A stretch of 62,523 nt of DNA, the filler included, from Streblomastix strix (taxonomy: Eukaryota): NCBI GenBank assembly GCA_008636045.1. It is 4 parts of 4 records of this genome, joined end to end, with 100 filler letters (N's around TTAATTAATTAA, not from the genome) between each part and the next. Parts side by side here need not be neighbours in the genome. Positions count along the whole stretch, not along the records: positions 1 to 15,560 come from SNRW01000964.1; 3 more parts are not named here. The stretch is one strand, 5' to 3'. Made by a program: the position numbers and the translations under genes. Under the pieces are notes generated by a model. The model did no database searches and had not been told where the DNA came from. It worked only from the letters and a program-made list of their open reading frames with translations. Below are positions 1 to 43,339 of the stretch, one piece after another; the first letter of the stretch is position 1, and every line of letters starts with the position of its first letter.

Positions 1-1776
1 AAAAATAATCTATAATAAATATAACATTAATCAAACAATATTATTAGTAAAGAAATTCCATTTATACATGAATAGAAATAAATAATAATTGAAAAATAAT
101 AATTAAATGAAATTAATGATAATTAAACAACACATTAATAGATTGAATAAAAAAATTAGAATAATAAATTAAAAACAATTAACCTTTCATTATTAGAATT
201 TGATGAAGATTGGTTGAAAACTGAATAATAAAATGATTATTCAAAAGATGACAATGAAAAATAATTCGATGAAGAAATATAATAGAATAAAGACTTAAAA
301 GAATCAATTGAAACTAATGATAATAATATTTGGCCAAGATAATACTATAAAAGTATAATAGAGACAACAGATGAATTTGATCTGAATGAAGATGGGTCAG
401 TCATAAAATATGATAATAGTTAACATTAAATACAAGAAAAGATAATATCATAAAAATAAAAACTTAAAATTGTTAAGAAAGAACAAAAGAAAGAAAGAAA
501 AAGATTGAAAAAAGAATTAAAAATCGAACATAAAAAGAAAAGACAGGCGAAGAAAGCAGAGAAAATAAGAGCAAAAATTGAATTGAAAGGAAAATCTGCG
601 AATTAAGAAATAGAAAAATTGATTGAAGATTAGTCAGAGTCTGAAAAATCTGGAAAATCTGAAAATAATGAAAATAAGAGAAAATTAGTTTAGAATGAAA
701 AGTAAAAGAAAAAAGAACAATTATTAGTCACAAAAAAGAACTTGAAATTAGAAAAGAGGAAAACTAAAAAACTTCAAAAATTACTTAAAAAGAAGCTAAA
801 GATATAAAAGAAGAAAGAAATCATAGAAATGAAATATCAAGAAGATCAGGTTCGAATTGCACCAGCAGTAATATATCTTCAACATTAATTAATTGACTCA
901 TTTAAACACGAGAGACTTCCAACATATTACCCAAACACACACCTGAAACCGTCAATCAAATAGAATTATCTGTTTGATTTACTGATGTTCATTCATTTGC
1001 AGCATTCTCCAGATCTTTGGAAGCCCCCCTTAACATACAATGTTCTTTATCAGCATATTGAAACAATGAGATCTTTTATCAGACCTCTTGAGACGAAATA
1101 TGTTGGGAAGAATTCAGAGAGTGAAATTAATGTTTAGAGAAATCGTGAATATGAATAAGAAAGCTAATAGATTGACATTATCAATAATTAATAATAGGGA
1201 AAAGAAGAAAGAGAATAAAATGAATAAAAAATTGAAAATTAATAATAAATAGAAGAAAATGATAAACTTGATTCATTTGATGATGATGATGGAGAAGTTG
1301 TGAAAGGAATTAAATTATTCAATGTTATTGGTGCTGGAGCTGATACTGATTGGCATTGTTTAATATCTGTTCGAATACCAAAGGTTAATGAATAATAGAA
1401 ACATAAACAAGATCTTGGAGAGAAATAAGAAAATGATGAGAGATTGATGGATGTTCAATTACCTAATGTTAAGTTCAATTTTGATTTAACTTCTAAAGAA
1501 TGTGTGAAATAAGAACGAAATATAGAAAGTGAAGAATAAAAAGCATTCAAACAACTAACTCCAAAGATAATCTTTTAGAACTCTACTTTACAATACACTT
1601 CTGTCGATGGAGATAGCACAATCCCATGTATATGCTCAGCAAATGATATGATTGGCTCAGTTGCAAAGTTTCAAATCAATCGAACAGGACATTCGAGTAT
1701 TTTAAGGGACAAACGGCTTTTGAATCTCATATCTTGCATTCTGGACCTGCCAATGATGTATCCTAATTCTTTTTGA
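1..1776 (+). CDS. LCAT3/4-like phospholipase A / acyltransferase (alpha/beta hydrolase), 3' part, with long Lys/Glu/Gln/Asn-rich insertions; 5'-truncated by contig start
   Basis: Frame 1 is open from base 1 to TGA at 1774-1776 when TAA/TAG=Gln. The C-terminus reads LFNVIGAGADTDW...SVDGDSTIPCICSA...RTGHSSILRDKRLLNLISCIL, matching the LCAT-family Y/F-N-x-x-G-xxx-DT, DGDGTVP (catalytic Asp) and H-x-x-I/L-L-x-D (catalytic His) motifs. Confidence 0.75.
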
Positions 1777-2175
1777 ATACTCATTTAGATTTGTTGATTA
1801 TCAATCTATTTGCAATTTTTTCTGTATTTATTGAAAATTGTTATTTTCAAACACTCTGTGAATTTTTTTTGAGTAGTGTTTGTTATTATTTTATAATGAA
1901 AACATGATGCAAATTCAATTTACTTTTAATGGTATAATGGTTATTCAAATATGCGCTTTGGTGGTGACTATTTATATTTTTTTGATAACAATCTCTTTTC
2001 TCTTGCTACTCATACTTAGATTAGAGTTTTAAGTAGTTTTGATTGAAAAAAAGCTTACGAAGCCATTTTTTATTTAAATCAGAGATAAATATTAAAGTAT
2101 ATGAGAACAATTTGCAAAATTTGATATAAATAAAAAAGTAATTAAATATAAATACAGTTACTTTGATTTAATAAA

Positions 2176-5100
2176 TCAAATTCTATCAAAGCTCCTTATT
2201 ACTTCTGGGATTTCGAGAACAGTCAAAGCAGTGATACGCTAGCTTGGAATCTAAATAATAATAAAATTATTATAAAATATAGTATAAGCAAAATGAAAGC
2301 AAACCTTATTTAACATTTTCTTAATTAACTGCTTAATATTATCACTGAAGAATTCAGACATCTGGAAAGGTTCATCACGCAACACTCTTCGCATGAACTC
2401 ATGAGGTCTAATATCATCTCTAGATTCCTGAATAAAAAAGATATAAGATTTTTTATTGTTAAATGATTTAAATTTAAAATTTTAAGCAAACATCAATTCT
2501 TAAAAACGGATGTTTTAATTCTAAAAGTTCATATAAAGCAATTCCTATTGCCCACATATCTGTCTCTCGCGTATGCATTGGTTTATCATTAAAATTTGAT
2601 AAATCATCTTAAAATGGATTTCTATCCATTAGATTTTTTGGAACAATATTTATTCTAAAACGTTCAGGAGCCTCATATAAACTTGCCATGATAAAAATAC
2701 AAATATTTAAATAATTAATATAAAATAATTTGTATACAATGTTCCAGCTTTAGCAGTTGTGAAATCACGCCCCTATTTCAGTTATGTGGCAAATCTAAAT
2801 TTAAAGTAATCATAACAGTGTTTTATTTTCAATAAAAATGTTTAAATAGTTTTACATACCCAAAGTCAGCTATATTAAATATATTAAATAATAAAGTGTT
2901 AATATTAATAAAAATTAATAAAATGCAAACCAATCTTTACTTTCAAATCATTTGTCAATAAAATGTTTTCTGGTTTGATATCTTAGTGTATTTTTCCTAT
3001 ATTATGAAGTTCATTAAATACAGCAGCTATTTATCCTATAATTTTCCAAGCGAGCTGAATGAAAGAAATTATTATAAAATCAATGATGAAAATAACAAAA
3101 AATATTAATTTAATATTAGCTTAATTATTTGGTACCTCTTCTATTATTACTTAATTATTTTCTCTCAAATTTTATATGTATTTTCGCAAATCTCCTAATT
3201 AACAATATTCAATAACAAGATATGCTGTTTAGGCATCTTCTACAAAGAAACCAAATGGCTATATTATAGGATTGTAAGTTAAAGAGGAGGGAGAGCAAAA
3301 AAGTTAATATGCGTCTTTTAATTATTTAACTTCTTTATCTACCATCTAAATTTCTTCTGGAGTTTCATATCTCATCTCTTTCCATGCCATGTGTTTCTAG
3401 GATGCATTCAATTTAACATGACGAACAACGCCAAATCCACCTTTACCAAGTCTTTCCATTTATGTAACTATTGAAATTATAAAAATTATAAATCATAAAA
3501 AAGATAAAGAAATATCGTGTTTTAAAAACTAAATAAAATATTCATACAATCTTATTTTTTCCAAGTTTTAATAAATTGATACTAAGATATTTATGGAGGG
3601 GAATGAGAAGAAGAAGGTGGAGGTGATTGAGATTATTATGTTAAAGGTGAATTTGTTTCATGTCTTTAATTACTGTTATAGATAACTGAATCAATTTGTT
3701 AATTATTTAAATAATTTTAAATCATTGGTGATCCTTATGAGTTTGTTGTTATTTCATGATAAATAGATTGTTGTGATGATTACTATGATATATAAGTTGG
3801 CAATCTTGTAAGTAGATGTTAATTTGAAGAAGAAGGTGGAAGAGATGTGGATGCATGTCTTGAATTATTGTTATCAATAATTGTATCAATTTGTTAATTA
3901 TTTAAATAATTTTATTAACCTAAAAAATTATTTTAACCAGAAGAATTTGAACTATAAATAGATTATGAAGATGAAGTGATTTAAGAAGATGAAGAATTTT
4001 GTGAAAAAGAAGAAACAACAGATGTTACTTCAGGTTAAACAGACTGTTGTGATGATTAAAATTAGGTAGGCAATGATGAATATTGAGCAGAAAATTAATC
4101 ATTAGTTGCAGCAATACGAGTAAAGATTTTCATTACATTATCCATTTTTTTTCCAACGATTACTTTGCCTTAACCACGTTTGATAAGGTTCAATATACCC
4201 TCGTCAATACGACCAAATCCAATAGCATCAATTTAAATTCCCATGGCATCCAGTTGATCAGCCTCAGATTTGAAACAGTTTTTTTCATTTCCTGATTTAC
4301 CAGAGCAATATGAGCAGTTACAAACACCGTCAGTAAAGAAGAGAACTCGACACTCATATTTAGGAGGATTTCTACGAGCAATTTCGAGTGCCCTTTATAG
4401 CGCAAGTTTAAAATTATTCCTTCCACCTTCAAATCCTTCTTCTTCATCAAGTTTCCTATTCCCTTACTCATAGATAGTTTTTACTTCATGTGAGTGAGTA
4501 AATACTGAAATTATCCCTCCATTTAATGTTTGAATATCAATATATTAATTCGCTGCAATTATCAACTATTCGTATGGAGCTCCACTCATCGATCTAGAAC
4601 TATCTAGAGCTAAAATTGAGTGACGAGGGCGTACACCAACAGGTTTTGGGCGCCATCCAGCGAAAGTTTTAGTAGAATAATGCTTTATAAGAGCAGGTGA
4701 TGTTGATAGTAATTTCGATCCACTTCTCTTTGCCGCATAAAACCTCTCTTCAAATCTTGTTAACCAACATGAAATAGAAATAACCAATCTTCCCATTCCA
4801 GTTTAATCTTCTCCAAACTCTGAGAATGCTGATGTGAATCCACCATGTAGTACAATAGGTCCTGGAGATGAAATTGCTCCTTTGCATGTTTCACTACAAT
4901 ACATAGCTTCTGATTCTGGGGGAATCTTTGGATCAAAGTAAAGAATGAATGGATTAGGTGGATCTACATTCTCTGACGTCCATGCAAATGGAGTGAAAGG
5001 CCAAAGTTATTCTGCAGTTGTCAGCGGTTAATCTTTATCATTAACAGCATATGATATTGTATTTCCTTCAGAAAAATGAATCAACCCAGGTCTAAGTGAT

Positions 5101-8100
5101 ATTCGACTTTTTGCTGAACCTGGTGCATCTAAATGTAATATCGGATTGAATGATCCTACTGTAGCAACATCGTTTGGTCCTACTTAAATCTTGTTTTTTC
5201 CTCGATAATTCCCCCCAAAACGAATAGCAGAAACACCCCTTCTACCTCCGTGCGAGAAAATGAAGTGATTTGCGAGGAGATAGTTTGCTTCGAAGTTATA
5301 TGGATGATTATCACAGAATAATAAAAGACCACCTCCACCACGCCAGAAATCATCTACTGCTTCTAAGAATGGAACAATCTTGTTCGTATCTTTATCTTTA
5401 GATTCTTTTGGCAATTCTCCATATCCTTCAGATGAGAATAACCAAAGCTATGTGTAAGGGCATCTATCATTCTCAACACGTTATAACTCAATTAATCCTT
5501 CTCCATATGAACAAACAAATTTGTAGTTGAATCCTTTTCTCTTCAGCACTGCTCCACACTGTTTATCAAAGACTGCTTGTTTGATTGTGTTTGGATCTTT
5601 TTCATTTGCTCCAAGATATAAACAGACAACAAGTACACTAAATTCTTCAAATGCACCATCATGATATGGTTCTTCTAATGGATTATCTGTTATATGTTTT
5701 GCATCTCTTTTCATATACAATAAATCAGTGTTACCAAATTATTCAAAGAAATCGAAGGACAATTCTCGTTCTTTGATATTCTTTGCTAATATTGAATACA
5801 TTTTAGGATTTCCACATAAAAGTCTTTCTATTCTTTTTAATCGAGCATTGTTGGCTATAGAATATAATTATCTTGGAATAATATTTTCACATAATCCTAC
5901 TCCAGAAACTCCCAAAGCTACAGACATCGCTTATCCAAGATCTGCTGGGTTCGGAGCATATAAAGCAATAGGGAAGAGAAGTGGAAGTTATAGTGGAGCA
6001 ATTCCCAATCCAATTCCCATTACATCTATTTGATTTGCATCAAAATCAATAAGAGCCTATCGTAAAGTACTTACTTCAGATGCATTTGATATAATGCTAT
6101 CTGTAAAAGCTATTATCCGTCTCCCAAACCCAACTCCACTTCGTCTTGATGCTAATTATAGAGCTGCAGATAATCCAATTCCTAAACCACTTTCTGTTCC
6201 TGCAATTTTATCAGCTGTCCGAAGTATATCTGATATTAATGTCCAGTCTGAAAGCAACCAAACTTGAATATTTTGTATTAATAGATTTGCTTTTTCATCA
6301 CTGGCAGCAATCACATCTACAACAATTTCATCTCCTTCAGGAACAAGAGCAAATGATCCTAATATTGATGCAATTGTACAGACTGTATGGGAAATATTCA
6401 AAGGTGAGAAGATTCTTTAAGTATTATCAATCACAAATGTAATTGAATAAGCTTTTTAATTCCTTCTACTTTTCTTCATAAACAGATATGGATAAGTGAA
6501 TCCAGATTAAATGAATCTCCTAAGACCTGGAATCCATAATTGTCCAGAAGAAGCTGATGGTTCTTTTTCAGCAGCTCGATTAGGAATAAGTGAATGAGTA
6601 AGAGCTTTTGTAGCAACATCTCTGGATATTGCAACAAATGGTGTTTTATTTTCGATTGTAACTTGTCTTTACAACCATTTGTTATCTGTTTCAATATTTT
6701 TTGGTTCTTATAATAAAATAGTCTTTTCAGTTGTGTTGAGATTTACAAGTGCAAAATTTGACGTTGCTTTGATTTAAACAAAGAAATTGTTTTTAGCTCG
6801 TTCATCAACTTCATCAGATTTTGCTTTAATTTCATGAGCTTGTGTAAGATTTGCCCAAAACATTGCTTTATCTTAAACTGGAGCACATATTGTAAGTATT
6901 GTTGATTTTTATTTGACTGGACCTTTCTAATCAGTTTTTGTGATGATTTTCATTGCAATTTCAGAAAGTATTTTTGGTATTTTACTGGAATCTGGAGATA
7001 CAAACCCAGAACAAAGTTCCTTTGGATCAATGCAGAGTGAAGAGATATTATTTCCTGGAGTGAATTTTGGAATGAGCCCATTTTCATACAATTCTCTTGG
7101 AACTTTCTTTTTATCCAGTAATTCTTAATTAAATTCAGTATTAAGCGAAATAAGTATACATCTTCCAGTATTTTCACTTGACCAATCTCGATCTTCATCA
7201 AGTACTTAAGCACTGATGAAATCTGAAATGATAATTGTTAAGTGATTTGGAGCAACTTGTGTTATTCCTGAAATTTTATCTTTTCTCAAACACCATTCAT
7301 TTTGTGAAGTGATTGCAGCATCTAATGGACATGATCCAGGTCTCCCACCTTCACGAAGAGCATCAATAAGACGCATTAAATCTTCTTATGGGTTATGATG
7401 GTTTGAGTCAGAAAGTTTCCAAATTGCTTCTCTATCTGCAAATGCATAATGATATAGATGGATACCAAAACTTGATAGAATTTCAGATATTCCAGTTGCA
7501 AGAACCATAGCTCCAATTTGTTTCATTTTTGATAATTTAGTCATAGAAGAGCTTATATCAACCATAAGAGAGACTTCAGTATCCTGCAACGTGTATGGAA
7601 TGATTGTGTTCTGATCAAATGGTTTTGAAAATTGTGCAATCTCCGCATAGAGTAACGATTGAATCTGGAGTGATAGATCATGAAGTTCAACAATTTCGTG
7701 TCTATTTTCAATATTTTCTAGATCATGTCGATCTTAAGTACCATCAAGTGGAACAACAGCTTTTCCTTCTGATACTTTCTTCTTATTATCATTTCCTTGT
7801 GGAGTTCTTCTTACAGCTTCATATTCCATTATTAGTAAATCTTCTACTTTCTTTCCTTTTAGTGCTTCTTAAATGTCATTTTATATCAATTAATTTTAAA
7901 TCTCATTAACATTAACTTATTTTGGGATAAATTCTTCCCCATCGATCTAATCTTCTTGTGGAGATTATCCAACAACAGTATAATTAATTTCAATTACCAT
8001 CTTTTCTTCTTATAATTCTGGAGTTTCTTTATTTGTTGGTTTTGGTTAAAATTATCCAAAATATTATAAATTTTAAGGTTGCATAAATTGATTTAAATTT

Positions 8101-11100
8101 GCAAATGTTTGCAATAGAATATAAAGCACTGACAATCTTCTTTTATTTTCCCATTCATTTTTAGCAATTAATGCCTGTTTATATTCTATTGGGTATTTTT
8201 GATATGCAATTTCTTAACCAGGGTTTTTACTAAATTCTCGTTTCAATGTATTAAAATCAGAATCTGGATCAAATAACCATTCAGGTTAAAATTATTGCTG
8301 TTTAATTTCTTCCGAGATTGTTAATAATCTTCGAAGTATTAAGCCAACCTCATCATTTGGAATGAGTGTATTCCATTGTTATATTTCTTTTTTTTCCAAT
8401 TTTTTTCTCAATTCTCCGTTAACAAGAAGCTCTACACATTTTAAAAGTGCGTCTTTTGTATTTTGTGGAATAAAATTTTTAATATTAAAAGGAGAATAAT
8501 CAATTGATTATGCAAATATGCCAGAGAATGTTCCTGATGAAGTTGTGAATTAAATGCAAGAAAGAAGATCAGCTGGTTTAAATTCAGGAAATTGAATAAA
8601 CTTTACATTATGTGGTGAATTCTGAAGAACATGAACAATATGTTCATCACCATGAATAAGTAATTAAAGTATTTCAGAAAGTTTTACTGGATTATTCTTG
8701 ATATTAAATGCATCTGCATAAAGAAGATGAATTCTGCTTAATGATTATAAATGATCAATATCTTCATTTTAAAGTTTTTATCCTTTTTTTGCAGCTTCAA
8801 GGAGATAAATGTAAGGATCAACAATTTTGTCTACGCTCTGATCTTATTTGAATAATGCTAAAATTGAAACAATGTTATCAAATGAAGCGTCTTCAGCAGC
8901 TTTTGAAATTGCTTCCTCTCGTAGAGAATATTCAATAAGAGCAGTTACTGCATTATCATATATTGGATTTCTACTATATTTATCAACAATTTAAGATATT
9001 TAAGATATTCCAACACCAATATCATTTTTACGAAGTTTCACTAATCTGAGATATGTATTAAGCTTTTAAATGTTATTTTGAAGTTTTTATGGATCAACTG
9101 TTCTGAGAGGTTCGTTAATCTTTCTAAAAAAATAAATAACTATTTCTGATTCTCTTTCAAATTTTGTGTTACGGCTTATATTTTCAATCAATAGTATTTA
9201 GTTATTAAAATCATTTATTAGTACTCTTTATCTATCTATCATTTGACCTATTTCATTTAACTCAATCAATTGTTTGCGAGTATCTATGAGTAATTAAATA
9301 ACATTATTCCAAAGATCAATTCCAATATCTTTTAAATTATAAGTTATTTTATTTGCTGAATCGATATATGAAGCCAGACAACTCATAGAATTTTCTACAG
9401 TTTAATGAACTTTAAGAAGATTTTCTGCAATCTCACTAGGATATTATTTGTTTGTGTTATTCATAAACTAACAAATTTCAAATGCTTTTTCACACAATTT
9501 TGTACTAATTGGAAGAAGAGATGTTCCAAATGGTGCCTTTCCAATTTAAATTGCTTTTATTCTGTATTGGTGAATTGATTATATTAATTCTGAGAGTGTT
9601 TCATTTTAAGTTAGGAGATCACTCGAAATATCAGAAAATAGTTCAGTTAAAACCCATAATTTCTACTCAGCAGTTAATTCTTTCATATTAAATATCTCAT
9701 CATGAGGTTATTTGGTTAATGAAGATAAGTCAATATCAAGAAGAGGAGTAATTTGAAGTTCGCTTGTTGGAATAGTTTGAGAAACTTCAGCTATTTGTGC
9801 TGGTATTTCTTATTAATTGAAGCAAATTATTGGTTTTTAATTCTTTCGAAGAATTAATTGCACAGTTTTGTTATCTTTCTCCAATAGAGGTGCATTGTTA
9901 ATATACATTTTAATTTCAAGATCTGATCGTGCAAGATATCCAACAACTGTAGCTGATTCATCCTCTTTACTCATGAGGTTGATAAATTACAGTATCTTAC
10001 GAATATATTTATGTTCAGCTAAAACAATTGATGTTTGTTTAATATTTGATGATTTTATTATTTCCTGATCAAAGAAATTATTCATATAAGTGGAGAGCAT
10101 ATTCAAATATACAGGAATAGATGGAAATATTTCTGGAAGTGAAGTGAATATCTAAATTGTATTCTAGATTCGAGCTACTATCAGCATCCAATCTTCATCG
10201 CTTTTTCCATCAATTTCAAATCCAGCAAAACTGTCTTTATTGATGCTTTTCTTACTTAATTTTTCTCCCAAACTTTTATTAATATGAGATAAAGCTATAG
10301 CAGGTTGAATAATTTCAAGAAGGTAATGCAATCTAAAGAATCTTTAGGAAATTGGTGTTGAAATTCGATAAATTTGCATAACAATAAAATCAACTTCGGA
10401 TAAAACAGAAACTGTTCTTCGAATATCACTAATCTTCATCTCTTTAAGCCATTCAATAGTAATTTTCTCAAAAATATTCAGAATATCTTTAATTTAAATT
10501 TTTTCAATATTATCAATCTAATGAAGATCTTTCGTTCTGTCTTTTCCTTTAAAATGAATTGAGAAGAGTTAATGCAATAATTCATCCGCATCATCAGGCC
10601 ATTTCATTCCTTTCTTTTTAATGAATTAATAAACTGTTGCATATTCAAATTATCCAGCTAGTTTAATAAATTCTTCCCATCGATTTGATTATATACTTAT
10701 TTTCTCATTTCCAATCTTCGTAATAATCTTTTCAGCATTGATAGAAATATTTTTCTGATCTTTATCCTCCTTAAAACATCTTATAAATGACATTTATACT
10801 CCATAAGCAATATTTGTTGCTGTAATTTTATCATTTCCAATTCCGCGTGCAGCATTTACAATTCTGTGAGGTGAAAAAGTATCTTTGCTGAATAAAAGCT
10901 TCCGATTTTTACTCTTTTCTCTAGCATTGCAGAAGATATTTGAAAGCATTCGAGAAAATGGAATGCTAAAAGTATTGCTAGTTTCTGATTGGTTCAAAAC
11001 ACTTTCAGATAGTTCTTTCAGTTGAACTTCTTCTTGAGCTGTTTCCATTTATATACAAAAGCATCTCGATCTAAGTGCAGGTGAAAGTTTCTTTAAATCA

Positions 11101-14100
11101 TTGCACGTGATAAAAATTTGAAATCCTTCAGCAATTTCAATATTTTCCTCATCTTTAATCTCAAGTTTAGTTTTTTCTTCATTATTTTAATTATCTCTCT
11201 TTACACCACGACCATGGAATATCATAGGTCTTACTCCTTCATAAATGGTTAATGTAGGATTTTCTTCTAATAATGACATCAAGCGTTCTACTTCATGTGG
11301 AGCTGATTCCACTCCATCTAATAATACCCAACCTCCTTATCGCATCATCTTTAACAGAATTCCTTCTTTGAACACAAAATTTCTGGTTGATTTTTATTGA
11401 TATTCAGCAATATCAACTATTAATTGTATTGTATCTGTTTAAATCTAGTTTAATTCTTATTAATTTTCTTTATTATCATTTTAAGTATAATTTTTTGTTA
11501 TTTTTCTAAGAATATTTTCAATTTCACTAAAATCTGGTTAGTCGGAGAGAGCAGATGCTGCAAGTTCAATTGATAGTGGGTGTCTTGCATCTATTATACG
11601 TTCTGTAATGTCTTTTGCTCTTTAAATTAGTTCCTGAAATGATTCCGCATTCCCACTAATCTCTAAAGATCCTATAATTGCTGAATTGTCAGTATCTGCA
11701 TTAAATTGAATGACACCCAATTGCCTTCCAACTGTTTGGGCAAGTGTTCTAATGGTGTGCGTTTTTCCAGCTCCACTTTCTCCAAACAAAGCCACTGGGC
11801 AATGAGCCATCACTCCTGCACCAATTAAACACATTACTCGTCTTTATTCAGATGTGAGAGGAAGATCCAAAGGACCATCAATTAATTCTGTTGAAATTGG
11901 TACTTAGACAGAATCAGATAGAATAAGATTTCCATTTAGAACAAGAGGTGTTGTATCAACTTTAGTCTATTCAATACCAACACTTTTCAGAAATTGTTCA
12001 GCTGTCTTTCTATTGAATTATGTTGAGTAAACTAGTTCAATTAATTGATCACTACTAAAATTGGGACAAGCATCACGCATCATTCGAAAATGTATAATTT
12101 CTCGCAATGTTACTGAATCATGTTTTGAAGTTACACAAGTTTCAAATATAAATATTTCAGTAGAAGTTTTATGTGCTTTCATGATTTTCTAATGAGTTTA
12201 TGATTTTTCATGAGTTATGTCTGATTCAACAAGAATAGCTTTTGCAAGGACATCAAGTTCATATTAATTGAACGGCATTAGACGAATGAAGTGAGATGCA
12301 CCTTAAAGTTTTGTGCTTAATGCAGACCTTGCATTGGAAAAAGCTGTACTGTTCATTGTCGCTACGATTATTATTGATTTATGATTAATTTCTTTTCCAT
12401 TTGGAAGAAAGAATCGACCAGACTTTCCCATTTCAAGCATTAATGATTCAATTAATTCAAGCAAATGTGGTTCTGCAAGATTGATTTCATCAATTAATAT
12501 AGCTTATGAAGGTAAACTTTGATCAAAAATGTCATCTTTACTCTGATTCATAGCTTTTGTCAATGGCCCTGGAACAAATCTAGTTGTAAGTCCACCGCCT
12601 TCTGGATCAGCTTATGGCATCTCTCGACCAAAAAGATCTTCAATAGTTGTAGTTGGAGATAGGTTGATTCGAGTGCATTACAATCCTAAAGCTTCGAGAA
12701 CCGCTTTAGCAACAACTGTTTTCCCTCTTCCAGGTGATCCTTCAAAGATTGTTATGGCTTTTGCTGCAATGGCTGTAAGTATTGCATCAGCCATATCAAC
12801 AGCACTCTTTGTCCATATTATAGTATCAAGAACTTCAATTTATGCATTAGAATGAATAGGAATTTAAATTCCGCTTGTTTTACTTACCAATTGTTTTTAT
12901 TAATGTGATGTATCAGTGTGTATCAAAACATCCCCTCGTTGTTAAACTGGTCTTTCTTTCGTATCTGTAACAATAATGTAAATCAATTATTATGGAATAT
13001 ATGTAGAAAGAACTTCTTTTGTAATAAATCGCCTATCATTATCAGGAAGTGCATCAACAATAGTTCGGAGTGCTGCAATTCCAGCTGATTTTGTTGATGA
13101 GAAATGTTATAATTTATGAAGAGAATTTGCAGTTCGACACCATCGAATATATTCATTTATTGTTACATTTTAATGCAGTTCAATAAGGTTTCTGTGAATG
13201 TTGTTGATAGCTTCAATCAAATCATAATCTTTTTCAGTTATTCTTTCTGCAATAACTTTTAAATCATATTCTTCAACATTTTTATCTTCTTAAATGTCCT
13301 TGTTTTCTTACTTCTTATCTATTGAAGGTCGAAGCTATTTGATGATATTTAATCTGTAAGGTTCAGTATAAATACTTGTAAAACGTGATAATAGTGGTCT
13401 AGATAAACTCATTCTTCCAGTTTCTGTTGTAGTCGCAGCCAATGAAAAACCAGCGCTAATCGGAGCAGAACGTGAACTTGATTAGTTTACTTCTCTCAAT
13501 ATTATATCATCATTGAAAATCTACTCGATATCTTCAGTAATTACCAAAGAACGTGGATCTTCTAATAGTGAATTCAATCTCTCTAATATAGAAGCAGGGG
13601 GAAGATGAATAGATTTGAGAAGAAGGGGAACACCAAGAACAGCTGAAAGTGTAACAACACTTGGATTAAATATTGTTGCAAACGTTCTTATATTAGAAGA
13701 AGAAGATTATTTATTCTAGTTTTAAAATGCATCTACTTTTTCACACATTTTGTTTAAACACATCTATAAATATAATACTCCACGAAATACTCCATGTCTC
13801 TTTTCTCTATTTCTTGCTTCAATTCCTCTTTTAGTTCTAGAAATTTCATTTTTCAGTGATTATTATATATCCTTTACAAGTTATTCCCTATTTTCTTGCT
13901 TATTTATATATTCGATACTAATTAAAGCATCTCTTATGGACATTTGAAGACTTTATATTCCATCTTCAAAACTAGAAGGTGTACTAATACTAGTTGATCC
14001 GATCAATTCACTAACTTACATCTCTTGGGTCATATAAATAATGTTCCTATTCTATGGAAGAAGAAATTCCATTGCAGTTGTCTTATAGCATGTTGGTCCA

Positions 14101-15560
14101 ACAAGAAGCACACTTTCATGTGGAATTTGATCATCAGGTGTTCCTGTCCAACGAATCCAAAACAAAGAATCCAATAAAGGTTGAGGGAATAAATCTTCTT
14201 TCTCAATTTTCATAGCAATATGAGCTCTTACTAAATAATTCCCTTTATTTGTTTATATAAAATGAGTTCTACCATATGCTAAGTTTTTTGCTTCTTCATT
14301 TGATCCACCAAATGTTTTGACTGTTTGATTAATCATATCCTTACGTTCTTCATCCAAAGTATGACCACTCAAAATAAATGAAAATGCAATATCTGTTGAA
14401 GATATTGGTTAGATTTAATCAGGAAGTTATGCATCATTTGGTCTATATCCCAAAAAATCATTTGCTCTTCTAAGAAAACGACGAACATCTCTTAAAGACC
14501 ATTTAATGTGTAGAATATCCTTCATTCTATCAACAAACTGTCGAAGTGCTGTTGGTTAAAGTTAACTAATATTAATATTTGGATAATCTGCTTTCATTAT
14601 CTTTTTAATCAACCCTTCCATATCTTTTGCACTTGGATTAGAAACAATAAATCTTTGGAGAAGAGAATCAATAAATAAAGGGAGTTTGACACGTCCTCTT
14701 TCACTGTCATCATTTCCAGCTGCTACAAATAAGAAGCCATTTGCAATTGTAATTGGATCTTTAATTTCTGGATGAATGAATGTTTCACCAGGTCTTGCAG
14801 ATAAGAAAGGAACAAGTCCAATCATCACAGTTGGAGTCAATAAGTTGAATTCATCAGCAAGAAATACATATCCTTATCTTGCTGCTTATACAAGTGGTCC
14901 TTCTACAAATCGGAATCCATTCTTATAAAATGACATGTTACCAATAAACTATTCAACTTAAGTTTCTCCATTGCATGATACAGAATATACTGGATTTCTG
15001 GAATTGAAAGTACGATTAGCACTAAAATGTCGAACAGCTTCTGTTTTCCCACATCCTGGTTCACCTTATAAGAATAATGGCCATCCTGAAGCTGATGATA
15101 TTGTAAGAGCTGCAATACTCTGCCACATTGGAGTATTCCTATCTCCATCATAAAAGAATCTTTATCCTGATTTAGGTATATTTAATGTTCTTTGAATTAA
15201 TATTTCAGCTGCATTAGAAGCCAACACTTTTGGTTGTAATAAGCAAAGAGAAACTAATTCTGAAGCTGGAAGTTTATTGATAATTCCATATGTGGAGCAT
15301 GTCGCATTTGCAAGTTAAGCAATATCTCTTATAGTAGATGTATTAGGAAGTGAAGCAGATAATGCTTAAGCCAATTGATTTATTTAATCTATTTTTGGGA
15401 TTGAAGGTCTAATTCCACGTGTCAATTCTCCTTAATTAATCAATTTCATTTTCTCTGCAACTTTTGAAATGTCGGTTTAAGCAATTAATGTTCGTAATTG
15501 GTCTGATAATTCAGGAGGATCAACTGCAATAGTAACAAATCGATTTCGAAGCGCAAGTGA
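2176..15560 (-). CDS. Giant (>4,300 aa, N-terminus missing) midasin-like multi-AAA+ ATPase fused to three vWA domains, a GATase-like domain and a C-terminal Ser/Thr protein kinase
   Basis: One exon, 15560-3548 (about 4,004 codons), with no in-frame TGA on manual scan. Eight ORF-track fragments (14562, 11622, 10794, 7386, 6156, 5481, 5184, 4566) lie in this same frame. Walker A motifs: GEPGCGKT (~15050), GPTCYKT (~14090), GSPGRGKT (~12730), GESGAGKT (~11770). Walker B: FLADEFN, ILIDEIN, VLLDGVE. Arg fingers: SLALRNRF, LSPALRSRC. vWA motifs: VDISSSM (~7550), VIDNTQR (~6425), LDSSRSM...FTDG (4610-4325). The kinase follows via 7 GT-AG introns (3468-3547, 3055-3135, 2870-2930, ~2795-2859, ~2682-2737, 2428-2491, 2251-2304) with LGKGGFG, MAWKE, HQDIKPEN, ADFG, YEAPE, DMWAIG. 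Stop TGA at 2176-2178. Confidence 0.85.
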
Positions 15561-16766: not shown

Positions 16767-19700
16767 ATGTAGAATTCAAGAGATAAAAATGGAAATAGTA
16801 ATGTATATGTAGAAAGTAAGATAAATTCTATAAACCAAGCACAAATACGATTGCAGAGTGCGTTAGATCGAGTCGAGAGAGAAACGAAGCGTATTTCGAC
16901 AGAACTGCAGAATAATATTTTAATTGTGAATTCTTTTGCGAATATGCAAGAACATCCTATAGTTACACGGATAAATTCCGAAATCAAGTCTGAAGTGAGA
17001 GCTTTATGAGATAAGTTGCTTAATTATGAAAAAGATACAACTCAAACGCTGGAAGGGTTAGACCAGAGAATATAATTATGGGAAGATCACAAAGATATTG
17101 AATTCATGAATAAGATATAAAACAATTAAAGTCAATACTCACACTTAACAGATAATAAGCAAAGCAACAATCAAAATATTCTTTCTTCAGGTTCCTACAA
17201 TTCATTATCCTCAAGAGGCAGAAGCTCAATTCAAACTCCCGAGCCTCTTCATACTATTGGATCAGATATTGGACAAGGAATGTCTCTTGGCCAAGCATTG
17301 AGACACATGAACATAAAAGAACAAAACGCTTTGCTTCGAATGGCCTCGCCTCTGCGTTCAACAGTATTATAATTATTATTATTGATTTTATTTATTTCAT
17401 TGTATCCTTATATTTAGGATACTTCAACTTCGCGTATTACTGCCTTAGAAAAGACTATACATGAGCTTCAACTCAAAATTTTACGACCTGAAAATATGAA
17501 TAAATTTCATGATAAATAAAATGAAGAAGAAGAAAGAAATAAAACAATTCATAAATTGGAAGAACAAATTAATGAAATGGAAACATAACTGAATAATGAT
17601 CTCAAAATATAATAAAAACAATATCATGAAACATTTGAGGTAAGCATTTTATTAAATTTCATAATAAATTTAAAATATTTAATTTTATTATATCATATAA
17701 TTAACAAAATATTATTTACAGTAAATCCAAAATAAATTTGAATAGTAAATTCAGCAACTAGCTAATAGAGTTGAAGAATAAGAAAATGGATTTAATTAAA
17801 CTTTTCAGAAAATGTAAAATCATTAGGAAGAAGAACAATAATAAATGAGAAATATTTATGAAAATAATTAAAATGAAAAAGAAAGATAAATTTCAGAAAA
17901 AATTCTGATAAATGTAGAAAAAATGATTAATGAATAAAATTAATTGAAATAGAATTAAATCAGAGAAATTATTTAATAGGAAATAAAAAAAGAAATAAAA
18001 TAAATTACTATTGAATTATAATCATAAAATCAATAATTAACAAATTTTGCTAAACAAAATGAACTGAAATAATTGAAAGATTTTGTTAAATTATAAAATG
18101 AATAAATAGCCAACAAACTTCCAGAACTTCAAAATGAGATAGCAGTGGAAATGGGAAAACAAATTGTCAATCTTTAATTTTAATTTTAATAAGATAATGA
18201 ATCCATCTTATAAGTTATTTAATTAATTGAATAAGAAAATACAACAAATTAATAAGAAACATAGAAAAATATTGTTTTTTAAATTGCATCTGAAGTAAAG
18301 AAGTAATTATAAAATGAAATGGAAAGAATGGTTGAAGTTTGCATATAACGAAGCATTTGTAAGATGAATGAAATTGAAGAGAAGAAGAATAAATATAATG
18401 AAGAACAGAAAAAGAAAGAATTGAATTAGAAAATGTTAAATGAAATGAAATAAGAAATGATTTAAACCCTCAGAAATGAAGCTTAATTAATGATAAGTAA
18501 AGCAATTGATGAGAAAATGTAATAAGGAAAAGAAATATAAAATAAGAAATATGAGATAGAAAATATTTTATAAAAACAAATAAACAAATCCAATAAATAA
18601 GAACACTTAGAATCACAACATTAAAATTAACTACCATCAAAAATTTGTTCTTCAACGGAATAATCATAAAAATCACCATTCTTTCTTTCAGATCCAAATA
18701 TTCCTTTCCCTTCTAATAATTCTTCTTTGAAAGATATCGAAAAAAGCAAATCTCAACCACAAACAAAACGCAAAGAAAGAAAATCAGATTTGCAGTAAAT
18801 TAATTAAGAAAAAGAAAATCAAAATTATCCAAAATTGGGATAAATAGACAATAAAATATTTTCATAAACTTCTCCATAAATATTACTCATAGAATAATAA
18901 TAATAATCAATACAAAAACCAATTTAATTGATTAGAGGAAAAACATCTCCAAATGTTATTTTCTAAGATCTTTTCAATTCAAAATAAATTTCAAATGATC
19001 GAATTTCTTAAATCTAATCTGAATACCAACCAACATTATTACAATCTCATTAAGAATAAGATTAAAATTTAGAATTGAATAAAACAAACTATTTTGAATA
19101 ACAAAATGAATCAAAAGAGATTGAATAAAAGAATGATTACATAAATAAATAAATAAATTCTATTTCTAATGATTAATCTGAATCTTAAATTCACTAATCA
19201 CTTGATCCTCATAAATAATCGACAGCATTGGGAATATATTTTTCATTTCATGAAGAGGATTAACAGATTATTGAAAGTATTGATCGTCGTTTATTTTAAA
19301 TTTTCTAAAGGAAATATCCAATTAATGAATAAAATAATACTGCTATAGTATTTTAGAACTTTAATGAATACACACTTTTCTTAAATCATTTTGAAGATTT
19401 AAATTAATTAGAAGATGAAAATAATTTAAACGAATATGGTTTTATAAGATCAGATATAAAATCATCAAAACAAGGAATGAATCGAGATCCAACTCTGAAT
19501 ATGGTTTCGAATGCAAGTAAATAATCAGTTATTTTAGATAATGAAATGATCAATGAAATTAAAAGATCAAATATTTTTCATTAACATTTAATAGGAGAAC
19601 GTGAAATTGAATAAAATATAATGAATGCATATGGATTAGAAAAATTAGAGAAAGAAAAAGCTGATAAATGGAGAGATTAAGAAGATGAAGAAGAATATAA

Positions 19701-22700
19701 TAATTAGAGAATGAAAACAAACTATGAAAAAGAAGAAGTTGATAATAGAGATTAATTAATAGCTTTTTAAGAGAATGATTAAAGTATTCAGAAATCATCA
19801 AATCTGAAGATAAATAAGGAATTATTGTAGAATTTATAAAATGAAGAAAATAAAGAGGTTGTAGAAGATTATTAAGTGAACTTTAATAATTAATAAATAG
19901 AAAGTTTATAAATGGAGAAATAATCAAAAATTGAAGTTTATTAATAAAATCAAACTGCACCATAACAAGCATAAACATTGAGAAAGACAATAACAAAAAT
20001 AGTGAAGAGAAAAAAAGAGAAAAAATAAAAAGATATTAATGAATAACTCGCATTACTGGAAAAGCAAATTATGAAAACATAACAAAAATATAATCTTAAT
20101 GAAGACATTGAAAATTTATATTATGAAATTGAAAATGAAAACACATTAAATGATGATGATGAAGAAGAAGAAGAATAAGAAGAAGAAGAAGAAGAAGAAG
20201 AAGTTTAGGAAGAAGTTGAAATTGACGTAGAAGTTGATGAGAATGAAAATATCAATAATGATACTGAATTAAATTAACCTTAAATCCAAATTGGATAAAA
20301 CATATAAACCATTCAAGCAGAAAAAAATATATCTAAATTCATCTAAACAAAAGGGAGTGGATTTTTTTCACCTCCAACTTAACAGATATAATATAAACCT
20401 GTATAAATACCATATGTTCATAATCGTACAGGACTATAAAAGTCTGATTTACTTCAATTAAACTAATTAAATGAAGATGATGAAACAAATTATGATTTAG
20501 AATAATTTCGTTAATAATAAAAGGAATAAAATATAGATAGACTAAAATCTTTGTAATAACGAATTTAAGAAAGTGAAAAACGTGGAATTATACTGAGAAA
20601 GATGATGAAAGAAGTAATTGAGAGAGTTATAGATGATAAGAATACAGAATCATATAAAGTCTACAGTTCAATTATTCGAGATGAGAATTCCAAAGTTGAG
20701 AAACGGATAATGGAATAGATTAAGAAATAAAGATAATAAGATAATGAAGATTAAGAAAACTTATTTATAAACGAAAATAAATAATATTCAGATATATCAG
20801 AAGCTGAATATATGAATGGACATATTGAGAAATCAAACGATGAAGAATAAACCGAAGGAAAGCATTTCTTGGATAAACGCTAAGATTAATCATCTAACTC
20901 ACCAATTTCAATGTTTTCATACTCTACATTCCAAACATAACAAACAGATCAAGAATTTATCTCTAATCAAAACTCACCTTTTCATTAATAACCAATTAAA
21001 TATTAGACAATTCTTCAAGTTGAACAAATCAAAGAAGATATAGATGAAGAAACAAATTCAAAAATGAATTCAAATGAATAAAGCTAAATTGACAACGAAT
21101 AATCAGTTGATGAAAAAGGAAATGATAAAATAATTCATGAATTAAATCAAGATAATGATTCAATTTTAAAAGATAATTTAAAATAAATATCTGATTTAGA
21201 AACAGAGAATTTAAGATCAGAAAAGGAAAATATGAAAATTACTAAATCAAATATTTAAACTAATTTATCTTCTTCTTAAACTCGGATTTCACCAAAAAAT
21301 TCTTCTTCTTCATCATCATCTTCATCATCATCATCTTAGATAATTTAAGAATCACAAGATTGATAATAAAATAAAATATTGAAAGATAAAGCTTCAGGAA
21401 TGAAGTCATATATTTCAATCAGCACTGAAGACAGTAATCAAATATCCGGATCTATTTTATCCGATCATATTCATATCACTGATACTGAACATTGTATTTA
21501 ATAAACACTTAACATTGGAAGTTCATAATCACCAAGTATTCAATCAAGTCAGTCTTCTGATTCTGTTTCTGGATCACATTCATCTTAATAAAATCAGAAT
21601 CATCATCTCCGCCATCATATACATCATCATACTCATGAAAACTCATAATAATAGATTAAACATTAAACTTAATAAATAACAAGTCCATCTTCAAAACACA
21701 AAAGTAACCATCATAAGCATAATTAAGACAATTCTCCAGGATAATAAAATAGTTTTAACTAATAAAATCAGGAAGAATTTCTGAAAGAAGCTGATTAATA
21801 ATAAATTTAAAGAAGTAGATCTAGATCTAGATCAATGTAAGTCAATAAAATATAAAGTATTGATTTAATTAATACTGGTTATAGTGTTGGGTAGTTGGAT
21901 TACTTATAGACATTAAATATATAAGCTAAAACAAATGAATAATAATCCAATTAATAGAAATTAGATGAAATAAACTAATTTTAAAATAAATAAAACAACA
22001 AATTTGAATAAAATTAATAATAAATGAATGAAAAATAAATTTTAATTGTCAATCATCCAAACCCTACACATGCGAATACAAATGGAATCATTCAAATGAG
22101 CACACCTACTTAATCACCACGAACACCTGCGAAACATGAAGAAAATAATAAATTAAACGATCCAAACATTTCAGAATCAACTTAATATCTTTCATAATCA
22201 TTTAATAAATATTAATAATAGATTAATAATTAAATTAATTCTCCTTCTTAAAGATAATCACCCACTTAAAGATAATCACCAAATCTTTTACAAGGAAATG
22301 CTAAACCTCCATTATATCAACAAAGCTTGAAACAATAATAAAATCAATGAATGAATTAACCACAGCCTCATTCTCCAATTCTATCTCCAAGATCACCTTC
22401 AAATATATCATTCTCAGCAATTGTTATGAATGCACTACAAATGGCCAATGATCTTCCAGATTCAAGATTATCTCCAAGATTAATTAGATAAGCTGCATTG
22501 TTAGAAACAAGCCATAGTCAAAATAAGTTAATTGATACTAACAATAACAATAATAATGGTATTGCAGATGAAACCCAATTTTATTCAAATCAAGATTTAT
22601 CTTAAATTTCAATGATAGAAGATTCATTCAATACCAAAACTTCAGCGCCTTTAACTTAAGAAGATTTATAAATGAAAGATATTGATAATTATTCAGAAAA

Positions 22701-25700
22701 TGAATTAGAAAGGAATAATGATATAAATGAGAAAAACTTAATTAATTTAAATGATGATTTGTCAATTAATAGAACAATCTATAATCAAAATTCTGATCTG
22801 TAAATATTATCGTCTGAACTATACAGTTCATCATCCTCTAGTTCATCTCAACAAAAAAGACCTAATACACAACATTCTAGTATTCAAATTGCTTCTAAGA
22901 ACATATCTACTAAAATTAATCCTTAATAAGTTTAACCAATTCGATTAATCTCCCCATCTATTCAATCGACTCGTTCTACATAAACAATATCATCAGTTTC
23001 ATCAAACTCTTCAAATGTTATATTTTTAAAACCAGAAACTGAAAGATAATTTTTTGAAAGAAAAGTAGATAATATTCCATTGAGTGCAAGACCTATTCTA
23101 AAAAATTCATTAAAATTAGAAAATCTTCCAATAATAAAAGAGATTCAAAATTAATAACAATCACAGCATGAATAACAAGTATAATAGTTAGGGACTAAAC
23201 TTTAAAATTTAAATTAACTTTCTTTAGTTTAAAACCAACTTTAAGATTAAAAAATGTAAGATAAATAAATAAATATGAAATTTAATGAATTAGAAAATAA
23301 AGAAAAATAAATTATATATGAAAATGATCATGTGAATGCTGATTCAGAACAAATTTCTCTACATAATAATTCAATATATAAATCTGATAAAAATAATATG
23401 AATAGCATGAAAAACTAAGAGAAATTGATTGATTCAAAATAAAATGATATTCAATAAATAATAATATACAATTAAAAAGATAATTTAACAATTGGAAAAG
23501 AAAATGAAGAAAAAATAAATATATTTAAAGATTAATTATAAATTTAATCTTCATCATCTTAATCATAATAAAATGGTAATTCAATTTAATAGTTATATTA
23601 AGAAAATGAAAATATTCAAAATATTAACGAAAAATAAATTGAATATTTTTCAAAAGATGAAAAAGATTAAGATTATTAAAAAGATGAAATTAAATTTGAC
23701 ATTCATAATTTCCAAAATATTGATTTATAAAATGATAAAGGAGATTATTTTCCAGTCCAAATTATTGAATAATTTACATCCAATCAAAAAAACTTATTTT
23801 AATAGTAAAACAATTCTGGAATCTTATTGAATAATAGTTTAATTTAACCATAAAATTAAAATAATTCTGGGAATAATTTGAAATATTCTTCATCTTCAAA
23901 TTAGTAATTTATAATTAATTAAAATTAGAAAAAATCACTTACTATCTCATTACAAACTATATAAAATTAAAATGAATAACAATAAAACTTATAAAATTCT
24001 GATTTGTAAAGTTTAAATTAATCTCAAAACAAATAAAAACTTACAGAATAGGATTTTATATCCACAAAACAAAATAAAGTCTAGCTCCAATCACCAACTG
24101 TTTTTTCTGAATTAGAAAATAGTTAAATGAAAGGGGCTTTTAATAAATCTTCAACAATCACACATTTTGAATCATTATTTTCTAGTCCTTATGCATAAAA
24201 TTTTTTCAATCCAACATCGCCTTTAACAATTGAATCACCTTCATAATGGGAATCAGGATCGATTCATTTAATTGAAAAAGATGAAAATGAAAAATAATAT
24301 GAAGAATTAAATGATAAAAGTTTTATTAAAGATAAATCATATTCAGAAGATTATTCAAACAGTTTAAACATTCATGAAATGAATTAAGAACTTGATTAAG
24401 AAAAAGAAAATGTGAAAAATAATTAGAAAGAATAAAGAGATAGAAAAATAAATAAGAAAAGAGATTTAGAAAAAGAAGAGAGAAAAGAATAAGATAATTA
24501 TTAATAAAAAGAAAAAATCAAACAAATCGAGGGAGAAAAAGAAAAGAAGAAGAAAAATAAAAAGAAAATCAAGAATTTTTTTAATGGATCTTTGAGTGAT
24601 AGAGTTCACAAGAAACATGAAGAAAGAATGGGACTTGCTTTAGATTTTGAAGAAATGTTAAATAAAACGAAATTTAATAAATAAGAATAAGATAATAATA
24701 CAAAATATAAAGACGATGAAATAAATGAAATGATATAAAAATAACTGTAATCAACTCAGAATGGGAAAATAAATTATTAACAACAAGATCAACATCTTTC
24801 TTCAACGATGCCAATAGAAATGAATACCTCATTAATATCAAATAATTCCGATTCATCAACTTAAAATGATGATAAAGAATTAAGTCTCAACAATAAATCA
24901 AAATACGCATAATAAAATCAACAACAGCCTTCTCGCACAATTGCATAGAAGCATCATTTATTAGATTAATCATAAGTGCATAAAGTTAATACAGATCCAG
25001 AAATATATAATTCTAAAAGATCAGAAACTGAATTTGAATCCGATAGAGATTCAAATTAAGACTCTTTTGAATAGATGAAATTTAAAAAGAAGAAAAAGAA
25101 GAAGAAAAAGAAGAAATAATTTGGAGCAGAATTATAATATTAAGGAGAAGAATAATAAGGAGAAGAATTAGGAATAATAAATAATTCAATAACAAATACT
25201 TTTTAGATGCAAACTGCATCAACAGAATGATCTAGTAATTAAGATTCGCAGTCTGAATATTCTTGGGAAATTGTTATTTCTCCAAATAAAAAATAAAAAT
25301 TAACAACCGAGAAAAAACAACCCCTAACTAAATTATAAAATTCATTTAATGCAGAATTTGAAGAATAATAAACAGAATAAGAAACGAAAGAAATATTTGA
25401 TTCAAATTAAAAATTATTATCATCTAAAGATGATTAGTTAAAGTCTGAGAATTTTAATAATAAAGATTTTTACTAAGAAAAAGAAATTATTTGTGAATAA
25501 GAAAAATAAATTATAACTCTTTAATCATCATAATATTAATAGCAGACAAATTCCACTCAATTTTCGAAAGATTTAACATAATTTACTTAATTAACATCTG
25601 AAGCGCAAAGAAAAAATATTTCTCAATGAAATAAGAAATAAGAAAACAATAAATTTATTGATAATTTTATTGATGAAAAAATAAATTTGAGTTCTGAAAG

Positions 25701-42158: not shown

Positions 42159-42312
42159 CTCTCCTTATTTATATTTCACCTCTGGTTGGAATACATATTT
42201 TTGGTGGGCCAGAGGTGAAATAAGGAGAGATGAGGATCACAAATCATTAACCTGCCTCCAAGGTAGATGGTGATAATAATTGATTACCGCCTTCTCTCCT
42301 TATCTCACCTCT
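42159..42312. repeat. Inverted-repeat / hairpin module at the DIRS 3' end
   Basis: TCTCCTTATTT..TTTCACCTCTGG (~42159-42185) is complementary to CCAGAGGTGAAATAAGGAGA (~42209-42228). A third copy, TCTCTCCTTATCTCACCTCT, lies at ~42293-42312. Confidence 0.75.
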
Positions 42313-43320: not shown

Positions 43321-43339
43321 TCTCCCGACGTCTGCAACA

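Follow-up and report, generated by a model that had tools for sequence, protein, structure and literature searches.

What kind of protein carries midasin-like AAA modules towards one end, a protein kinase at the other and three von Willebrand A (vWA) domains in between is the question raised by a gene of Streblomastix strix. The window, 62,523 nucleotides (nt) of S. strix DNA including filler, is composed of four unrelated contigs of ~ 15.5 kb joined by N-spacers, the first of which (1-15560) carries the gene. A database entry of 4,020 amino acids (aa), 99.6% identical to the protein of the window, bears the label 'putative PLK4' for Streblomastix strix, an automatic name that drew on the kinase alone. 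Our analysis points at a different identity. With a probability of roughly 0.55, the giant is a paralogue of the midasin family, likely a single-chain ATP-driven remodeller, with a C-terminal kinase that was likely fused to it recently. What matters most is the family itself; to this the fusion with a kinase is a likely but lineage-specific addition.

The gene was translated with genetic code 6, in which TAA and TAG encode Gln and TGA is the sole stop; with table 11, the open reading frame (ORF) scan of the window yields nothing above 173 aa. Under table 6, one frame of the minus strand stays open between the contig edge (15560) and 3408, giving 4,004 codons without any stop. Removal of seven GT-AG introns results in one single frame of 4,307 aa with a lone stop at 2176-2178. 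The introns are short (54-81 nt), GC-poor (10-17%) and confined to the final 1.4 kb of the gene, leaving the first 12 kb intron-free. Since no codon but TGA acts as a stop, the giant frame is bound to run on beyond the third vWA domain, and the first intron brings the kinase in frame. The database gene model omits the Ser/Gln tract that joins these two domains, an omission which is not required by the DNA. Read-through of TGA was considered for the kinase region and rejected, because the introns account for it.

The domain map derived from this frame is given in Table 1. The N-terminal region, AAA1 and most of AAA2 fall outside contig 1, and all six AAA modules are present in the S. strix paralogue P0176. 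An earlier note on this DNA had described five AAA modules, one partial and one degenerate, which we recover as the AAA2 tail, AAA3, the degenerate AAA4, AAA5 and AAA6. Its assignment of the last two modules to midasin AAA5 and AAA6 also holds: profiles from nine canonical midasins identify the last three modules of the window as AAA4, AAA5 and AAA6, and full-length relatives such as P0009 have six. The long linker that it reported is real and conserved within the family; neither Pfam nor BLAST against the fungal midasin linker or tail returned a match for it. The Ser/Gln linker followed by a complete kinase was likewise correctly seen.

Table 1. Features of the giant gene, in window positions and from the N- to the C-terminus of the protein
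Feature	Position	Strand	Evidence
AAA2, C-terminal part, arginine finger intact	15141..15560	-	alignment; rest beyond contig edge
AAA3, Walker A and Walker B intact (predicted live), own arginine finger degenerate	14457..15122	-	Pfam, alignment
AAA4, dead site (GPTxYK Walker A, no DE), long H2 insert	13281..14138	-	alignment
AAA5, Walker A and B intact (predicted live), no arginine finger	12084..12785	-	profiles, alignment
AAA6, Walker A intact, Walker B without Glu, long H2 insert	10935..11855	-	profiles, alignment
Linker, ~950 aa, conserved within the family	8061..10934	-	homologue comparison
In-frame junction, ~1,200-aa segment lost in the window copy	8031..8072	-	comparison with relatives
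vWA1, DxSxS motif	6945..7592	-	motifs, AlphaFold2 model
vWA2, predicted homologue of the midasin MIDAS domain, pore-inserting loop ~6453-6596	5865..6635	-	profile comparison
GIFT-type class-I GATase-fold domain	4728..5684	-	structural comparison
vWA3, Cys-rich insert	4101..4625	-	Pfam
Ser/Gln/Asn low-complexity linker, no in-frame TGA	3576..4100	-	translation
NEK-like non-RD (HQD) Ser/Thr kinase	2176..3575	-	Pfam, spliced frame; stop 2176-2178
Kinase-region introns	3547-3468, 3135-3055, 2930-2870, 2859-2795, 2737-2682, 2491-2428, 2304-2251	-	GT-AG

The ring offers the clearest link to midasin as well as the clearest departure from it. Among the nine PDB matches of the window protein, the best are midasins (E 8e-49), followed by NorQ and CbbQ, and ring identity between midasin and the family amounts to ~ 22-25%. 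When 16 family rows were aligned with 2 related rows and 5 midasins, the Walker B DE pair proved to be kept in AAA1 (12/13 aligned rows), AAA3 (13/16) and AAA5 (7/16), and absent from AAA2 (0/15), AAA4 (0/16) and AAA6 (0/16); in AAA4, neither GK nor DE occurs in any of the 16 family rows. The arginine fingers of the window display the complementary pattern, being kept in AAA2, AAA4 and AAA6 and lost in AAA3 and AAA5. In midasin, the finger of module n+1 acts on site n (PMC6286127). By that rule the modules that retain a finger are precisely those placed to complete a live site, with the arginine of AAA4 serving AAA3 and that of AAA6 serving AAA5. At the level of these motifs, ring sites 1, 3 and 5 are predicted to be live and sites 2, 4 and 6 dead, as opposed to yeast Rea1, where AAA2-5 are live and AAA1 and AAA6 are without Walker B (PMC6286127).

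Two further midasin hallmarks are missing. The AAA2 insert of Rea1 plugs the pore and lowers ATPase activity 10-15-fold (PMC6286127). The spacing between Walker A and Walker B of AAA2 is 72-93 aa in 14 family rows compared with 171-182 aa in 5 midasins, which indicates that the H2-alpha pore plug is missing in all 14 measurable rows, these being relatives, since the window is without that part. The acidic tether rich in Asp and Glu is absent from the family, with a maximum D/E fraction per 200 aa of 0.16-0.32 (0.18 in the window protein) against 0.39-0.46 in three midasins.

In the tail, an AlphaFold2 model spanning vWA1 to vWA3 (pLDDT 88, pTM 0.75) displays the vWA order of strands and helices in vWA1 and vWA2, and Foldseek with the whole tail model returned vWA matches, listed without their ranges; Pfam gave no match for vWA1 or vWA2. 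The Asp of the vWA1 motif is invariant (28/28) and Ser replaces Thr. As matches of vWA1 to other vWA profiles are weak (E 0.008-0.02), we assign its fold from the model and motifs. The second domain, which also matches vWA profiles, resembles the metal ion-dependent adhesion site (MIDAS) domain of midasin with an hhalign probability of 92 (E 5.7e-7; PDB 6qt8, E 7.6e-4), and its N-terminal extension is colinear with the Rea1 MIDAS loop (element II). By profile comparison vWA2 corresponds to the MIDAS domain of midasin as its homologue and retains the pore-inserting loop; vWA1 was considered for this role and rejected on the same comparison. Midasin carries its single MIDAS domain at the C-terminus, whereas vWA2 is internal and accompanied by two extra vWA domains and the GATase-fold domain, with an immunoglobulin (Ig)-like segment in most members. 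The PY import signal (PY-NLS) found in 7/9 midasins occurs in 0/59 family rows.

The Rea1 loop docks into the pore of the ring, and substrate release depends on it (PMC6624252); NorD inserts a similar finger into the pore while its MIDAS grips the target (PMC13036017), and the midasin MIDAS forms catch bonds under load (PMC8837202). In the family, the vWA2 metal motif is DxSxS in 36/65 rows and degenerate in the S. strix clade (DNTQR in the window copy). The Pfam-supported vWA3 keeps DxSxS in 53/53 rows, the window copy having Asn in place of the MIDAS Thr. From this difference in the metal sites we infer a division of labour, in which vWA2 would couple to the ring and vWA3 would grip the target. 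The three vWA domains announced earlier are thus all present, although the midasin-type MIDAS is vWA2 rather than vWA1 and its metal site is degenerate here; the vWA3 metal motif is also present as described, except for the Thr-to-Asn replacement.

How far does this architecture extend? Using the GATase-like domain, we matched 147 representatives, many of them 4,000-7,000 aa long. Names come from 30 clusters that we looked up, together with those rows of three homologue searches that bear a name, many other matches being metagenome proteins. Named members belong to S. strix, Tritrichomonas foetus, T. musculus, Chilomastix, Kipferlia, Dysnectes, Aduncisulcus and two Neocallimastix genomes, and hence cover parabasalids, fornicates, oxymonads and gut fungi; the Neocallimastix members reside on contigs of 364 and 829 kb. 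Their database labels range over 'PLK4', 'NEK kinase', 'Midasin' and 'hypothetical'. The common order is a variable N-terminus, six AAA modules, the linker, an Ig-containing segment, vWA1, vWA2, the GATase-fold domain and vWA3. We also fetched 18 metagenome loci, AT-rich and using the standard code, that are nearest to the Neocallimastix group. Single internal in-frame stops or frameshifts in 8 of them (L001, L002, L004, L008, L011, L012, L015, L016) suggest frequent decay or assembly errors. In S. strix itself, 14 sequences bearing the GATase-fold domain form one clade (support 99) with a single pair above 90% identity, from which we count at least 13 copies.

In a ring tree (LG+G4, 1,396 columns), the 16 family rows lie on one side of a branch with SH-aLRT 100, apart from the 5 fungal-type midasins that represent midasin there, no metamonad MDN1 being included. 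Neocallimastix groups next to S. strix and away from the fungal midasins. Together with the module assignment and the MIDAS-loop homologue, this supports the proposal made earlier of a paralogue derived from midasin. The family is apparently undescribed: no description of it was found in the literature, subscription papers and supplements lying outside the coverage. Of the sources consulted, the available part of PMC3495828 discusses the dynein-midasin split alone, and PMC5100056, PMC3017767 and PMC6759080 provide context only. Narrow exact-pattern scans for the GATase-fold-vWA3 region revealed no relative in prokaryotic genomes or viral contigs, and a similarly narrow scan of single metagenome proteins found none either.

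Two proteins stand beside the family. P0184 (6,231 aa, from a Prymnesium metagenome-assembled genome) and P0181 are midasin-like giants with a dead GPTxYK AAA4 and, in P0184, a short AAA2 as well. Their AAA4 and AAA6 inserts are much longer and no GATase-fold domain was detected in them; in the tree they form a sister branch (98) between midasin and the family of the kinase gene. A different arrangement is seen in P0013, a metagenome protein of 878 aa in which Hsp70 (Pfam E 3e-165) is joined directly to the family's GATase-fold domain.

The kinase requires separate consideration. After splicing, its eight exons encode the Gly loop, beta3 Lys, alphaC Glu, HxD, DFG and APE motifs; the Pfam Pkinase match has E 5e-41 (on the database gene model), and the catalytic loop reads HQD, the non-RD type. 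The DFG motif sits on a microexon of 10 nt (2869-2860, minus strand). An expressed fusion of vWA3 and kinase, as predicted from the DNA, is one that we hold probable. The fusion is rare, however, with a C-terminal kinase in only three S. strix proteins, namely the window copy, P0003 and P0010; in the latter two the kinase is related, also non-RD, follows vWA3 and is 48-49% identical to that of the window. In 15/18 of the metagenome loci a stop comes right after vWA3 (of the others, one continues beyond the contig end, another has a divergent tail and the third is too short), and no kinase occurs in the fetched stretch of any of the 18.

Kinases have been gained elsewhere at the other end of the protein. 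An N-terminal kinase is present in P0249 of T. musculus and, doubtfully, in the S. strix model P0207, and in the Neocallimastix group a kinase-like domain occupies the N-terminal position (hhalign probability 78, E 1.8e-5; controls under 1). Such domains at ~ 510-790 of P0009 and ~ 40-320 of P0035 are probably pseudokinases, missed by the kinase hidden Markov model and found by profile comparison. The kinase is hence best seen as a recurring accessory. The idea that it is a core part of the machine is not supported, whereas the expectation that accessory domains vary among paralogues is borne out by copies with a C-terminal kinase, an N-terminal kinase-like domain or neither.

The same observations nourish the alternative that survives best, namely that the family is real and the kinase an accidental passenger, acquired when a lost stop let the frame read into a neighbouring kinase gene, or created by a mis-join at ~ 4000-4200, in a decaying duplicate. 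The many loci ending at vWA3 agree with this, as do the intron-free core set against seven introns in the kinase part and the modest kinase identity to P0003 and P0010 compared with 80-83% for their GATase-fold domains. The open Ser/Gln tract is weak evidence by itself, since 19% of shuffles of its 185 codons are also free of in-frame TGA, and the large deletion and imperfect MIDAS sites of the window copy would befit a decaying gene. An accident, on the other hand, hardly accounts for 4,004 stop-free codons, a frame kept through intron 1 and a kinase intact over eight exons. P0003 moreover shares the Cys-rich vWA3 insert with the window copy, lies on a contig (9,849 nt) too short to hold the lost segment and ends in a kinase of the same type.

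The DNA join was checked with contig pieces of two sequencing runs, X1 (possibly the source sample) and X2. A single X1 piece of 2,345 nt covers 1644-3988 with one difference, an X1 contig joint connects 3986 with 4104 at a depth similar to single-copy pieces, and an exact X2 piece lies at 4220-4485. In addition, an exact 393-nt X1 piece (7891-8283) spans the junction of the segment loss. RNA runs were looked for as well and none was listed, which bears in neither direction on expression. Taking both sides together, we regard a passenger kinase as unlikely.

The alpha/beta domain between vWA2 and vWA3, suspected earlier to be GATase-like, indeed adopts a class-I glutamine amidotransferase (GATase)-like fold by model (pLDDT 92) and structural comparison; Pfam gave no match at E 0.1. 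Its Z-scores are 15.9 for OST48, 15.6 for IFT52-N, 14.4 for site-1 protease (S1P) and 14.1 for ThuA, with root-mean-square deviations of 2.9-4.1 over 200-225 residues and 10-17% identity, while catalytic GATases reach about 12. On the model, the domain is closest to IFT52 and OST48, the GIFT type. A structure atlas also lists GIFT-bearing clusters for it, bacterial proteins among them. The segment of ~ 1,200 aa that the window copy has lost is present in P0004-P0007 and others, where it weakly resembles ASH/PapD-like Ig domains plus helices: Cep192_D6 matches are weak (6/10 loci, best E 0.0013), HYDIN and NPHP4 Ig look-alikes stay below the recognition threshold, and no PDB sequence match falls below E 0.2.

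These resemblances suit a flagellar, basal-body or membrane-trafficking remodeller, targeted by its GIFT and ASH-type Ig domains (Cep192, Hydin, NPHP4) and regulated by the NEK-like kinase. NEK kinases are linked to cilia and, to our knowledge, all named hosts are flagellated at some stage. GIFT and Ig folds, however, occur in bacterial proteins too, no animal, green-algal or trypanosome member appears among the matches looked up, and neither the high copy number nor the broken copies would be typical of core ciliary genes. We consider such a role quite improbable.

Still less probable is that the GATase-fold domain acts as an amidase or peptidase with a non-classical site that is fed by the ring. 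A Cys does follow the nucleophile-position strand in the closest members, and polar residues of the 350-aa domain are conserved (Asn135, Asn143, Arg203, Glu215, Thr218, Glu321). That Cys is nonetheless replaced in distant members, the Cys-His-Glu triad is not conserved (neither the elbow Cys nor any His reaches 70% among 56 rows), and non-catalytic GIFT proteins outscore the catalytic GATases (Z 15-16 against about 12). Least credible of all is that we are looking at the metamonads' own highly diverged midasin, still extracting Rsa4 and Ytm1 from pre-60S ribosomes: the structure matches, the conserved module order and MIDAS loop, the 'Midasin' label of some members and the absence of a canonical S. 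strix or Tritrichomonas midasin from the homologue matches, which did not extend to metamonad MDN1, would allow it, but the fungus Neocallimastix carries a member outside the fungal midasin clade, S. strix has multiple copies, the acidic tail, PY-NLS and AAA2 plug are gone, no midasin-specific Pfam domains were found, and the live-site pattern is the opposite, with the vWA2 metal site degenerate in the S. strix clade.

Several points weigh against a midasin-family remodeller with a fused kinase, the reading we prefer. Both the mechanism and the fusion are read from DNA sequence and models. The ring tree was built with a simple model and has only fungal-type midasins for comparison, and both long branches and composition bias were flagged in it. 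The clade of S. strix sequences bearing the GATase-fold domain leaves the order of the three kinase-bearing copies unresolved. AAA5 is degenerate in most parabasalid rows, and, the genome being assembled from a metagenome, cryptic lineages may account for some of the S. strix copies. The fusions in P0003 and P0010 derive from gene models built automatically, and such models cannot be relied on here: that of the window gene leaves out the Ser/Gln tract, and in others an N-terminal kinase or a PADR1 domain has been attached. Among the contig pieces listed, none is exact across 3988-4220, so that this interval rests on the joint and continuous depth only, and run X1 may itself be the source sample of the assembly. 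With its loss of ~ 1,200 aa and imperfect vWA2 and vWA3 metal sites, the window copy could be decaying. Finally, the family is also present in free-living fornicates, neither a toxin nor a nuclease effector was seen, and conservation in free-living metamonads together with cilia-type GIFT and Ig domains leaves a structural or trafficking role possible.

If the protein is a midasin-family remodeller, six modules would fold into a ring that hydrolyses ATP at AAA1, AAA3 and AAA5, each live site being completed by an arginine of the next, dead module. With the AAA2 plug gone, the pore could take up the vWA2 loop, by analogy with the midasin and NorD fingers, as vWA3 (perhaps also vWA1) holds on to a target protein by one of its acidic residues, bound via Mg2+. 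The GIFT domain would serve as a non-catalytic scaffold or ligand-binding module. ATP-driven pulling or twisting may then strip or reshape the target, in the cytoplasm and not on pre-60S ribosomes, and the tethered non-RD kinase might phosphorylate the captured target or report its capture. Repeated duplication, decay, gain of kinases, a patchy range and the non-RD kinases, a type associated with innate immunity (PMC8463890), lean towards stress or conflict sensing, which we advance tentatively and with less than even confidence. A response to symbionts or pathogens, as the earlier note envisaged, is not supported in that form, since its support is circumstantial and free-living fornicates also have the family.

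Known systems offer partial parallels. Midasin (Rea1/Mdn1) shares six tandem AAA_5-type modules in one chain, of which modules 4-6 of the family best match its own 4-6, an AAA6 without catalytic Glu, a long linker and a MIDAS domain with pore-inserting loop; it differs in its live sites (2-5), plug, acidic tail, PY-NLS and copy number, and kinases occur in some family members. The MoxR pairs NorQ-NorD, CbbQ-CbbO and RavA-ViaA likewise combine a MoxR-clade ring with a vWA protein, a finger in the pore and a MIDAS on the target (PMC13036017), but are bacterial homohexamers with a separate vWA partner, whereas the family unites a ring and three vWA domains in one eukaryotic chain. GIFT proteins (IFT52-N, OST48/Wbp1, site-1 protease) and ThuA-like proteins share the fold, at Z 14.1-15.9, but in the family this domain is embedded between two vWA domains of an AAA giant. 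RNF213 (mysterin) has a six-AAA ring with few live sites and an E3 ligase, and acts in innate immunity. The likeness, that of a giant ring made from one chain, partly of dead modules, and coupled to a signalling enzyme, would be one of analogy: RNF213 is without the vWA triad, the family protein is without a RING/E3 module, no RNF213 sequence match is among the nine PDB matches, and Pfam scans revealed no RING/RZ E3 domain.

The remainder of the window contains several other features. On contig 1, a convergent Lys/Glu-rich ORF (1-1776, plus strand) has no Pfam match; we presume that its C-terminal part recalls an alpha/beta-hydrolase tail. Four successive low-complexity ORFs of 1,256, 328, 959 and 132 aa share one frame at 17593-25629 (plus strand), with a single TGA between them and no Pfam match; TGA as a residue or short introns are possible explanations, and the in-frame single-TGA pattern recurs at 52021/52022 and 37146/37147. 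A large HEAT-repeat-like protein (weak PF02985) at 31318-39072 (plus strand) has a block of ~ 45 codons close to its start that is duplicated exactly within the ORF. At 42247-43383 (minus strand), a tyrosine recombinase ORF (Phage_integrase, E 3.6e-8) lies in a GC-richer stretch reaching to ~ 47000 that is probably a DIRS-like retroelement. The minus strand of 46975-62523 encodes a giant Gly/Cys/Ser-rich repeat protein of ~ 5,000 codons with near-identical blocks, one frameshift and one TGA; it has no Pfam match at 0.001, and its repeats presumably recall those of pectin-lyase-like surface proteins.

What might the family mean? On a bolder and doubtful view, it would form, together with the haptophyte-type proteins with a dead GPTxYK AAA4, an ancient six-AAA branch beside dynein, midasin and RNF213, which survived in anaerobic flagellates, passed laterally to gut fungi and gave rise to a fast-evolving intracellular sensor with a trimer-of-dimers ring, a vWA grip and repeatedly recruited kinases. 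If true, such a sensor would be the protist counterpart of RNF213-style cell-autonomous defence. As members occur in culturable Tritrichomonas, Neocallimastix and Kipferlia, localisation and function are open to experiment. Midasin usually counts as a ribosome factor encoded by a single-copy gene. As a multi-copy sister that kept the finger in the pore, inverted the pattern of live sites and dropped plug and tether, the family would be a natural experiment on how such rings generate force and how single-chain AAA rings diversify.

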